A stretch of DNA of 64,000 nt from Escherichia coli O157:H7 (GTDB taxonomy: Bacteria; Pseudomonadota; Gammaproteobacteria; Enterobacterales; Enterobacteriaceae): assembly GCF_013167455.1 (NCBI RefSeq), contig NZ_CP038328.1, one strand, 5' to 3'. The position numbers and the translations under genes were made by a program. Numbering within the stretch: the first letter of the stretch is position 1; every line of letters begins with the position of its first letter. The notes beneath the pieces were generated by a model that was not told where the DNA came from, ran no database searches, and was given only the letters and a program-made list of their open reading frames with translations. Below, piece by piece: positions 4,255 through 51,824 of this stretch.

Positions 4255-4360
4255 AGCTGCCTGATGCGCTATGCTTATCAGGCCTACATAGTCCCTGCAA
4301 TATATTGAATTAGCAAGGTTTTGTAGGCTGGATAAGGCGTTCACGCCGCATCCGGCAGTA
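4255..4360. repeat. REP (repetitive extragenic palindrome) pair between convergent torZ and cmoB
   Basis: gcctgatgcg...cttatcaggcctac and taggctggataaggcgttcacgccgcatccggca are classic REP sequences. Confidence 0.7.
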
Positions 4361-13425: not shown

Positions 13426-14439
<1,014 letters not shown>

Positions 14440-14440
14440 G

Positions 14441-14675
14441 TCGGATTGGTCGCTCGCACCGCATCCGACATTGGCAGTGTGCCTGATGCGACGCTATTCG
14501 CGTCTTATCAGGCATATACCAGAGATAGCGAACCGTAGGTCGGAAAAGGCGCTCGCGCCGCATCCGACATTGGCAGTGTGCCTGATGCGACGCTGTTCGC
14601 GTCTTACCAGGCCTACCAGAGATAGCGAACCGTAGGTCGGATAAGGCGCTCGCGCCGCATCCGACAAATGTGTTC
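14441..14675. repeat. BIME-like cluster: tandem 98-bp units each carrying REP palindromes
   Basis: catccgacattggcagtgtgcctgatgcgacgct recurs at 14463 and 14561 (period 98 bp), with a partial third copy near 14655. Confidence 0.8.
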
Positions 14676-14684
14676 AGCGATAGA

Positions 14685-15470
14685 TTAGCTGGCCTGCTTT
14701 TTCATCATACTGATAATAAATAACAGTGCCGCACATAGCACCACCGACGGACCCGCCGGCGTATCGTAAAACGCGGAAAAGGTTAAACCGTCAGTTACTG
14801 CCACCATCCCCACCAAAACAGCGACACCAGCCATCTGTTCCGGCGTACGGGCAAAGCGACGCGCAGTAGCTGCAGGAATAATCAGCAACGAAGTAATAAT
14901 CAACGCACCGACAAATTTCATCGCTACACCAATCGTCAATGCCGTCACCAGCATCAACAACAATTTCACTCGCTGTAATTTCACACCATCAACAAACGCC
15001 AGATCCGGGCTAATCGTCATCGACAGCAAATTGCGCCATTGCCAGAACAAAATAGCCACCACGATGACCACGCCAATTGCAATAGAGATGAGATCTTCTG
15101 GCGTCACTGCCAGTAAATCACCGAACAGGTAAGCCATCAAATCAACACGAATGTTAGACATCAGACTAACGACCACCAGGCCCAGCGACAGGGCACTGTG
15201 CGCCATAATCCCTAATAACGTGTCGATCGCCAGCTGTGGACGCTTCTCCAGCCATACCAGACCGCCCGCCAGCAGCAGCGTAACGGCAATCACCGCATAG
15301 AATGGATTCACGTCCAGCAACAAACCAAACGCGACACCAAGTAATGAGGCATGAGCCAGCGTATCACCGAAATAAGACATACGACGCCAGACTACAAACG
15401 AACCCAGCGGACCCGCGGCACAGGCGAGCATGATCCCGGCTAACCAACCGGGAAATAATAATTCAATCAT
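14685..15470 (-). CDS. znuB: Zinc ABC transporter permease ZnuB
   Basis: 261-aa ORF, polytopic membrane protein; 4-nt overlap with znuC. Confidence 0.9.
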
Positions 15471-19737: not shown

Positions 19738-19785
19738 ACTATCATTGAACTGTAGGCCGGATGTGGCGTTTTCGCCGCATCCGGC
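19738..19785. repeat. REP element
   Basis: gtaggccggatgtggcgttttcgccgcatccggcaacg. Confidence 0.7.
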
Positions 19786-35592: not shown

Positions 35593-35677
35593 CATTTAAG
35601 CTGATGACCACCGCGCTTTTTATTGACCATTTTGCACGCAAACTGGAAAACCTGGCGTCGTCATCTATTCTTAAAGG

Positions 35678-35780
35678 GCAAGGCAACTAAGCCTGCATTA
35701 ATGCCAACTTTTAGCGCACGGCTCTCTCCCAAGAGCCATTTCCCTGGACCGAATACAGGAATCGTGTTCGGTCTCTTTTT
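35678..35780 (+). ncRNA. sdsR: SdsR (RyeB) sigma-S-dependent sRNA
   Basis: Sequence gcaaggcaactaagcctgcattaatgcc...gaccgaatacaggaatcgtgttcggtctcttttt recognised; sigma-S-like -10 CTATTCT at 35665..35671; terminal hairpin GACCGAA/TTCGGTC plus U-run. Confidence 0.8.
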
Positions 35781-35914
35781 ATCTGTTAAAAGCCAGAAGC
35801 ATTTCCTTCGCTGACTTTATAGTCAACCATAACACACACTCTACTGTCTGAGTCCAGCGTTTTTTAACATTCTTGTTAAGATTATGTGATCTTTAGCGCG
35901 GGAGGAAAATATTG

Positions 35915-50668: not shown

Positions 50669-51293
50669 AATTCATCCTGATTATACGCACTGTCATGGTG
50701 CAACTGCTTCAAATTAAAACTCTGGTCTGACTTCAAATAATTATCATATTATTTATTTGCGTAACGGGATATCAGAAAAAGATATTTACCCCATTAATTT
50801 ATTAGGATGTTTACATCGGATTTGTGATTAAGCGTGGTATTATTTATTAGCGAAACGTTTCTCTCTTGATTTTTTTTGCTTATTCATCAATTTTTCTTAT
50901 TTTAAATTTCCAATTCCTTTGGGATTGACTTCTCTTTGGGGTGATTGAGAGCCGTTAACTGCCTGTTTTATGAGAAAAAGTGATATAACTTTTTATTCAT
51001 TGCATAGCAGAAAATGTGATATTGCACGCACTATGTAATAACTTCTCCCACTGACCTGGAACAACTGAACTTATTGAACTATGTTAGAAACTACGTCAGT
51101 TTAAGTATCTGCGGAACTGACAAGGTTAAGCACAATGATATATCGGCGCGTATTCCGTTGCATAAGTGTGCAAAAAAAGTGGAAGACGTATCGAGATTTG
51201 TGCGTCTGATCGAGACATGTTTAAAAATGGCTTGCCATAATTAACGTTGTATGTGATAACAGATTTCGGGTTAAACGAGGTACAGTTCTGTTT

Positions 51294-51437
51294 ATGTGTG
51301 GCATTTTCAGTAAAGAAGTCCTGAGTAAACACGTTGACGTTGAATACCGCTTCTCTGCCGAGCCTTATATTGGTGCCTCATGCAGTAATGTGTCAGTTTT
51401 ATCTATGTTATGCCTGCGGGCGAAGAAAACAATCTAA
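51294..51437 (+). CDS. yobF: YobF, 47-aa small protein in the cspC leader; below the ORF-track size cutoff
   Basis: ATG 51294 to TAA 51435..51437; translation [47 protein letters not shown]; 12 nt before cspC. Confidence 0.8.
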
Positions 51438-51449
51438 GGAATTTTTCAA

Positions 51450-51659
51450 ATGGCAAAGATTAAAGGTCAGGTTAAGTGGTTCAACGAGTCTAAAGGTTTT
51501 GGCTTCATTACTCCTGCTGATGGCAGCAAAGACGTGTTCGTACACTTCTCCGCTATCCAGGGTAATGGCTTCAAAACTCTGGCTGAAGGTCAGAACGTTG
51601 AGTTCGAAATTCAGGACGGCCAGAAAGGTCCGGCAGCTGTTAACGTAACAGCTATCTGA
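51450..51659 (+). CDS. cspC: Cold-shock-domain protein CspC
   Basis: 69 aa; RNP1 motif KGFGFI. Confidence 0.95.
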
Positions 51660-51703
51660 TCGAATCCACTGATCTGAAGTGTGAATACGCTTCAATCTCG
51701 CTA

Positions 51704-51732
51704 TAAAGCCTCGTCGAATGCGAGGCTTTTTA
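51704..51732 (+). terminator. Rho-independent terminator after cspC
   Basis: aaagcctcgtcgaatgcgaggcttttt. Confidence 0.75.
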
Positions 51733-51824
51733 CTATGCTTTATCTTCGCTCCTGGCGTTCGGATATTTGCCCGCCGCGTGATTCGCGTTACACTTGCGGC
51801 CTTTAGTATCCTGCCGGAGTTGTC

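Follow-up and report, generated by a model that had tools for sequence, protein, structure and literature searches.

What is the repetitive DNA that fills the gap between ruvB and znuB in Escherichia coli O157:H7, and what might it do there? The window analysed here, a stretch of 64,000 nucleotides, carries ruvB on the + strand (13429–14439, stop codon TAA at 14437–14439) and, convergent with it, znuB on the - strand (14685–15470, stop codon at 14687–14685). Both genes were assigned from the list of open reading frames and from the RefSeq annotation of a 100% identical E. coli O157:H7 chromosome. Few bacterial repeats have been known for as long as REP/BIME elements, and strains are on record as differing in their BIME-2 copy number. 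Considering identity and inferred mode of action as a whole, we are confident that the ruvB-znuB array is best explained as belonging to BIME-2, the tandem class of the REP (palindromic unit) repeats of E. coli. It is a known kind of element, at a locus already catalogued as BIME-2 in K-12. The copy of the MG1655 reference record in which we sought a REP annotation lists no repeat features.

The existence of a periodic repeat between the two genes, as claimed by the original prediction, is confirmed. Tandem Repeats Finder reported a single array, at 14451–14666, with a period of 99, 2.2 copies, 94% matches and a score of 379. A gap-free repeat finder gave copy spacings of 99 and 97 bp and extended the homology back to 14434, where CCGTAA is matched to CCGTAG. 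Finally, exact string positions place CATCCGACAT at 14462 and 14561, for a first period of 99, and GTAGGTCGGA at 14535 and 14632, for a second period of 97. The first Z2 REP has 2 bp (AT) inserted, which accounts for the difference between the two periods. The period of 98 given by the original prediction is therefore the mean of the two real values rather than either of them; its anchor coordinate of 14463 was off by one, since CATCCGACAT begins at 14462, and its extent of 14441–14675 needs to be replaced by 14436–14666. The full array thus spans 231 nt and consists of 2.36 head-to-tail units of 97–99 bp that are 94% identical: unit 1 at 14436–14534 (99 nt), unit 2 at 14535–14631 (97 nt) and a terminal Y REP at 14632–14666. 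The first four bases of the array, GTAA, include the ruvB stop codon.

In each unit, a Y REP is followed by 9 nt of linker, then by an inverted Z2 REP and a second linker of 15 nt, for five REPs overall in the array, and these elements together with an 18-nt tail account for all 245 bp of the ruvB-znuB spacer. REP1 (14436–14470, + strand) is a degenerate Y-type REP whose best match is the published Y sequence (25/35), with a predicted RNA hairpin of -14.2 kcal/mol. Its GTAG reads GTAA, the last three bases of which are the ruvB stop codon, and its stem starts at 14440, the base after the stop. The non-GTAG feet of REP1 and REP2 are joined by the 9-nt linker TTGGCAGTG (14471–14479). REP2 (14480–14519, - strand) is an inverted Z2 REP that matches the published Z2 at 32/37 positions and folds with -22.3 to -22.7 kcal/mol; on the minus strand it reads GTAT-AT-GCCTGATAAGACGCG..., with the 2-bp AT insertion and the loop variant CTATTCG. 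The 15-nt linker CAGAGATAGCGAACC (14520–14534) connects REP2, at its CTAC foot, to REP3, at its GTAG. REP3 (GTAGGTCGGAAAAGG..., 14535–14569, + strand) is of Y type (29/35), with one mismatch relative to REP5. The second copy of TTGGCAGTG (14570–14578) then leads to REP4 (14579–14616, - strand), an inverted Z2 REP (34/37) with the loop variant CTGTTCG, and the second copy of CAGAGATAGCGAACC (14617–14631) leads to REP5 (14632–14666, + strand), a Y-type REP (30/35) that is the best conserved of the locus across Escherichia. The unique tail, AATGTGTTCAGCGATAGA (14667–14684), separates REP5 from the znuB stop codon. Within the array, both linkers are exactly duplicated.

The reference sequences for typing the REPs as Y, Z1 or Z2 were those given by Durrant et al. 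2024. REP1, REP3 and REP5 best match Y (25, 29 and 30 of 35), with REP3 and REP5 keeping both the GTAG and the palindrome. REP2 and REP4 score 25 and 30 against Z2 but only 13 and 14 against Z1, which can be aligned to them only with gaps. Orientation alternates as well: the Y REPs read GTAG-> on the + strand and the Z2 REPs read GTAG-> on the - strand. The five REPs are arranged as Y> <Z2 Y> <Z2 Y>, and the earlier suggestion that the array is built of REP palindromes, and is hence a BIME, is upheld by this typing and by the alternating orientation. A pattern for the 35-nt Y REP, allowing up to 3 mismatches, has 2 matches in the window and 0 in 100 dinucleotide shuffles. Other REPs in the window lie near 4274–4356 and at about 19773–19785, as expected for a dispersed family. 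A CRISPR-like array was considered and ruled out because the repeats alternate in orientation and there are no unique spacers. Two small open reading frames within the array (14471–14635, + strand; 14494–14667, - strand) are mechanical ORFs in repeat DNA, and RefSeq does not annotate them.

Which type of BIME is this? In the nomenclature of Gilson, Bachellier and Hofnung, as summarised in Ton-Hoang et al. 2012 (PMC3333891), BIME-1 combines y and z1 REPs in a single copy with a long, conserved L linker that frequently contains an IHF site, and BIME-2 pairs y with z2 REPs, has short linkers and is repeated in tandem a number of times that varies between strains; BIME-2 linkers are not uniform in either length or sequence (Ton-Hoang et al. 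2012, PMC3333891). The original prediction had attributed IHF binding to the ruvB-znuB units. That some BIMEs do bind IHF (PMC3333891) is the sole argument for an IHF-recruiting element of the BIME-1 / RIP-RIB type. BIME-1, or RIP (RIB), elements likewise pair a Y REP with an inverted Z-type REP at gene 3ʹ ends. However, BIME-1 has Z1, a single copy and a long L linker with an IHF site, and the array has none of these: the partner of Y is Z2 rather than Z1, the linkers are 9 and 15 nt long, the unit is repeated in tandem, and the IHF consensus WATCAANNNNTTR has no match in 14400–14720 on either strand with 0–1 mismatch. On these grounds we assign the array to BIME-2, regard a BIME-1 identity as having practically no chance of being correct, and do not retain the claim of IHF binding, the IHF site being a property of the long L linker of BIME-1. 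In its alternating Y and Z2 REPs, short linkers, tandem module, extragenic position at gene 3ʹ ends, polymorphic copy number and gyrase cleavage in the K-12 ortholog, the array resembles BIME-2, and there are no essential differences. Specific to the locus are the degenerate REP1 over the ruvB stop codon and a first Z2 REP with the 2-bp insertion and with GTAT in place of GTAG.

Do the units encode small RNAs? The sole Rfam match at the array is RF02564, naRNA4, which aligns end to end to both units, at 14538–14613 (+ strand, 61.5 bits, above the gathering score of 59.5) and at 14439–14514 (+ strand, 51.2 bits, under the gathering score). The model was derived from REP325, the BIME-2 between yjdM and yjdN, and describes no more than two hairpins, Y and Z2, joined by a linker; in the array, the linker joining them is shorter by 2 nt. 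These matches, together with the report that RNAs from REP325 units bind HU and that ~80% of REPs are transcribed (Qian 2015), could be taken to mean that the array consists of several small RNA genes of the naRNA4 kind, with products that bind to HU and bring about condensation of the nucleoid. However, since RF02564 is merely a Y-linker-Z2 REP pair, any BIME-2 unit will match it. In addition, there are no promoter-like sites in 14000–15100; with none in or near the spacer, any RNA from the array would be 3ʹ UTR of ruvAB or znuCB. The nucleoid function is itself now disputed: a preprint from laboratories that had proposed it found no measurable effect of REP325/naRNA4 on nucleoid compaction or REP-REP contacts (Harris et al. 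2026). The two loci share the two-hairpin Y-linker-Z2 unit but differ in setting, REP325 having six units between co-directional genes of one operon whereas two units lie between convergent operons here. We consider the small RNA reading highly improbable. The naRNA4 match is an independent confirmation of the architecture of the BIME-2 unit and is not evidence for an sRNA gene.

A similar case is found elsewhere in the window. The REP near 4.3 kb looks like an inverted pair and is hit by Rfam RF02751, ES036/CssrF, at 4280–4322 on the - strand; this “ES036 sRNA” match is probably another REP-derived Rfam family and not a distinct sRNA gene. The Rfam scan at gathering thresholds also identified MicL (37–344, + strand), the overlapping SraC/RyeA and SdsR/RyeB pair (35640–35784, - strand, and 35681–35780, + strand) and a cspA-type thermoregulator 5ʹ UTR (51274–51734, + strand). 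These are expected E. coli features and are unrelated to the array.

Is the number of units a fixed property of the locus? It is not. As had been anticipated, copy number varies between strains, with spacers of 146, 243–245 and 340 bp corresponding to one, two and three units across E. coli genomes. The 146-bp spacer is that of K-12 MG1655 and many others, the 243–245-bp spacer that of O157:H7 and of the non-O157 strain Z1323HEC0393, and the 340-bp spacer that of KL53, BLR(DE3), an O9:H10 strain and B strains. To estimate allele frequencies, we took two systematic samples down the hit ranking, 98 E. coli chromosomes in total, and called alleles from span lengths; the resulting frequencies are approximate and come from a clinically biased database. 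About 69% of the sampled chromosomes have one unit, about 9% have two and about 8% have three, while the array is disrupted by IS1397 in about 10%, a 216-bp allele with an IS remnant accounts for about 2%, and an IS621 insertion is found in about 1%. Counts based on at least 80% of the query being covered, with short-flank queries, were discarded, since one-unit genomes still show 100% coverage when BLAST pieces reuse the same subject bases. The allele in the window is found in identical form in about 347–349 (~350) of 5,426 complete E. coli genomes; among those listed, the identical records are O157:H7 or name no serotype. The window carries the two-unit allele typical for O157:H7.

How did the additional units arise? 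The extra upstream units of two- and three-unit alleles have the Z2 loop variant CTATTCG in common, and the znuB-proximal unit has CTGTTCG, as does the single unit of K-12. For this handful of alleles, the shared CTATTCG suggests that the expansions probably have a single origin rather than recurring in each lineage. The two units of O157:H7 differ by 4 substitutions and a 2-bp indel, and hence the duplication is not recent. We infer that the extra unit arose by duplication of the whole Y-linker-Z2-linker module, either because the 35-nt Y REPs recombined unequally or allowed slippage, or by the action of the Y1 transposase associated with REPs. The array resembles REPINs and the REP doublets mobilised by RAYT (TnpA-REP) in its inverted REP pairs and in the conserved 5ʹ GTAG that TnpA-REP needs for binding and cleavage. 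Recombination by TnpA-REP can add REPs in vitro, which is a possible route to the gain of units (PMC3333891).

Insertion sequences have also entered the locus. IS1397 (IS3 family, 1,432 bp, with a 3-bp TGT duplication) occupies the centre of a Z2 loop in DA33135 (NZ_CP029576.1, 373–1804 of the extracted locus). Its presence in the ruvB-znuB BIME of about 10 of the 98 sampled complete genomes suggests that the insertion probably marks a large clone. IS621 (IS110 family, a bridge-RNA recombinase element of 1,279 bp) lies in a Z2 foot in 2016C-3878 (NZ_CP029747.1, 2675–3953 of the extracted locus), exactly at the published natural target ATCAGGCCT|AC. The foot of REP4 in the window, ACCAGGCCTAC (14606–14616), is one mismatch from the natural IS621 target sequence ATCAGGCCTAC (Durrant et al. 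2024, PMC11208160); in REP2, the AT insertion abolishes the equivalent site. A 60-bp fragment that corresponds, with one mismatch, to the first 60 nt of the IS621 left end is found inside the last Y REP, flanked by TATCCGACCT direct repeats, in SF-166 (NZ_CP012633.1, 607–666 of the extracted locus) and in DA33135 (from about 1856 of the extracted locus). The inner junction of this fragment coincides with CCGTATCGGGCCT, a target-like sequence in the IS621 left end. The fragment may therefore be the footprint of an aberrant IS621 recombination between the REP target and the left end of the element itself.

A comparison with other species indicates how the locus has evolved. We located 56 Enterobacteriaceae loci, one genome per species, with a degenerate-pattern scan for the RuvB C-terminus. 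The convergent order of ruvB and znuB is conserved among these loci, and the spacer measures from 28 to about 300 bp, reaching >2 kb in the comparison between genera. All five of the other Escherichia species have a Y-Z2-Y skeleton (134–148 bp) whose first REP overlaps the stop codon of ruvB; hence, the three-REP state, one unit plus a terminal Y REP, is ancestral for the genus as judged from these sequences. In E. albertii, E. whittamii and E1V33, the first REP has an intact GTAG, the TAG of which serves as the stop codon of ruvB. The 31-nt stem-loop of REP5 is identical in Escherichia sp. MOD1-EC7003 and has one to a few substitutions in other Escherichia species, and its hairpin stays between -15 and -19 kcal/mol in all Escherichia compared. 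Conservation across the genus is asymmetric: the REP at the ruvB stop codon decays, from a hairpin of -19 down to -1 kcal/mol, whereas the znuB-proximal Y REP is almost invariant. Outside Escherichia, the ruvB/znuB spacer contains REP-like palindromes of the genus's own or a simple GC hairpin, with a genus-specific REP-like palindrome in most genera. Klebsiella has a palindrome of the GTAGCCCGG type, Citrobacter has Z1-like REPs right after the stop codon and Salmonella arizonae has a single REP. Different REP families appear to have settled at this site on repeated occasions.

Could the REP over the ruvB stop codon be the functionally important part? A ribosome-stalling, tmRNA-dependent mechanism for stop-proximal REPs was reportedly described by Liang, Rudd and Deutscher in 2015. 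As summarised in PMC12306157, REPs that lie no more than 15 nt from a stop codon are reported to cause ribosome stalling and reduced translation. On this basis, REP1 might stall terminating ribosomes and lower RuvB through tmRNA, making the array mainly a translational brake on ruvB. REP1 falls within this distance, since its GTAG equivalent contains the stop codon and its stem begins 0 nt downstream; only ruvB qualifies for such an effect, because REP5 stands 18 nt from the znuB stop codon. However, no other REP of the locus is as weak or as degenerate as REP1 (-14 kcal/mol, 25/35), and its counterparts have decayed in most Escherichia lineages, with hairpins of between -1 and -8 kcal/mol in four of them, which is unlike a conserved regulatory hairpin. 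A brake on ruvB would also leave the downstream units unexplained. We therefore think it improbable that braking of ruvB is the main function. The distance from the stop codon to the first paired base, calculated from MFE folds for 46 species, was uninformative because nearly every fold pairs near its ends.

What could the BIME-2 array as a whole do for the transcripts that end there? As RNA, each REP folds with -14 to -23 kcal/mol on either strand, the spacer is more strongly folded than its shuffles (z = -5.4 and -6.7 on the two strands), and the array is the only structured sequence between the two convergent operons, ruvAB and znuCB. Strong GC-rich hairpins between convergent genes speak for an intrinsic, Rho-independent bidirectional terminator, and ~40% of REPs between convergent genes lie within previously predicted bidirectional terminators. 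However, no T or U run follows the REP stems on either strand, and a terminator scan identified no intrinsic terminator in 14440–14684, its lone match, inside znuB, being at chance level. We give an intrinsic terminator very little credence. Other members of the family suggest a role at 3ʹ ends. REP325 acts as a partly Rho-dependent terminator and a stabiliser of the upstream mRNA, and for convergent genes, the presence of REPs between them correlates with higher expression of the two. The effects of REPs depend on context, and terminal REPs are not generally associated with longer half-lives (Harris et al. 2026). The literature search on REPs at ruvB/znuB returned nothing relevant on transcript 3ʹ ends, half-life or termination; in the accessible part of the Harris et al. 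2026 supplements, there is no entry for a ruvB/znuB REP, and znuB appears only in an expression table.

By analogy with the family, GC-rich REP stem-loops on either transcript would block 3ʹ-to-5ʹ exonucleases, and the REPs would give partial, factor-dependent termination that is partly dependent on Rho. The array would then serve as a shared 3ʹ-end structure for two convergent operons that have no intrinsic terminator. The role of “insulator” or mRNA stabiliser put forward in the original prediction is thus plausible at the ruvB-znuB array.

The proposal that the array is bound by gyrase has published support from Topo-seq at the orthologous K-12 locus, which has one unit. Sutormin et al. 2019 (Table DS3) list K-12 znuB>-<ruvB as a BIME-2 with 2 cleavage sites under each of Cfx, RifCfx and Oxo (ciprofloxacin, rifampicin + ciprofloxacin and oxolinic acid) and 0 under Micro (microcin B17), so that sites were recorded in three of the four conditions. 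BIME-2 regions are enriched in gyrase sites, with y REPs preferred to z2 REPs, and these sites persist or increase when transcription is blocked (Sutormin et al. 2019). Cleavage was measured in the one-unit K-12 ortholog; for the two-unit O157:H7 allele, it is a prediction. At the level of DNA, the Y REPs would be preferred sites for gyrase binding and cleavage, and gyrase would thereby be positioned where the positive supercoils of convergent transcription accumulate. Together, the hairpins, the functions of the family and the gyrase sites lead us to read the array as a shared 3ʹ-end structure for ruvAB and znuCB that probably doubles as a resident gyrase site.

An alternative explanation is that the array is functionally neutral, selfish DNA tolerated in convergent spacers, and that the polymorphism of one, two or three units is neutral repeat instability with no effect on ruvB or znuB. 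Healthy lineages differ freely in copy number and in insertions (IS1397, IS621 and the 60-bp IS remnant), spacers of 28–50 bp suffice in other genera, and effects at the level of the family depend on context and are often small. However, the znuB-proximal Y REP is nearly invariant across Escherichia while the neighbouring sequence diverges, gyrase cleaves the K-12 copy in vivo, and some GC-rich palindrome is found in most of the 46 other Enterobacteriaceae spacers analysed, which suggests that a hairpin is needed in the spacer. Neutrality is a possibility to be taken seriously, but we consider it unlikely. A more novel reading combines several effects: the stop-codon REP would brake RuvB synthesis by stalling ribosomes, selection would act in opposite directions at the two ends of the BIME, as seen in the repeated erosion of REP1 and the strict conservation of REP5, and the number of units (1, 2 or 3) would tune gyrase loading and the transcriptional insulation between the SOS and zinc-uptake operons in a lineage-specific manner. 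We regard this combined scenario as very unlikely.

As a BIME-2 already catalogued in K-12, the ruvB-znuB array matters little alone. Genome scans should label such arrays BIME-2, without attributing IHF binding to them and without reading a naRNA4 match as an sRNA gene. The locus is also a compact example of REPs as landing pads for REP-specific mobile elements, represented here by IS1397 and IS621. Finally, the length of its spacer (146, 245 or 340 bp, or disrupted by an IS) is a simple lineage marker, the 245-bp allele of which tracks O157:H7.
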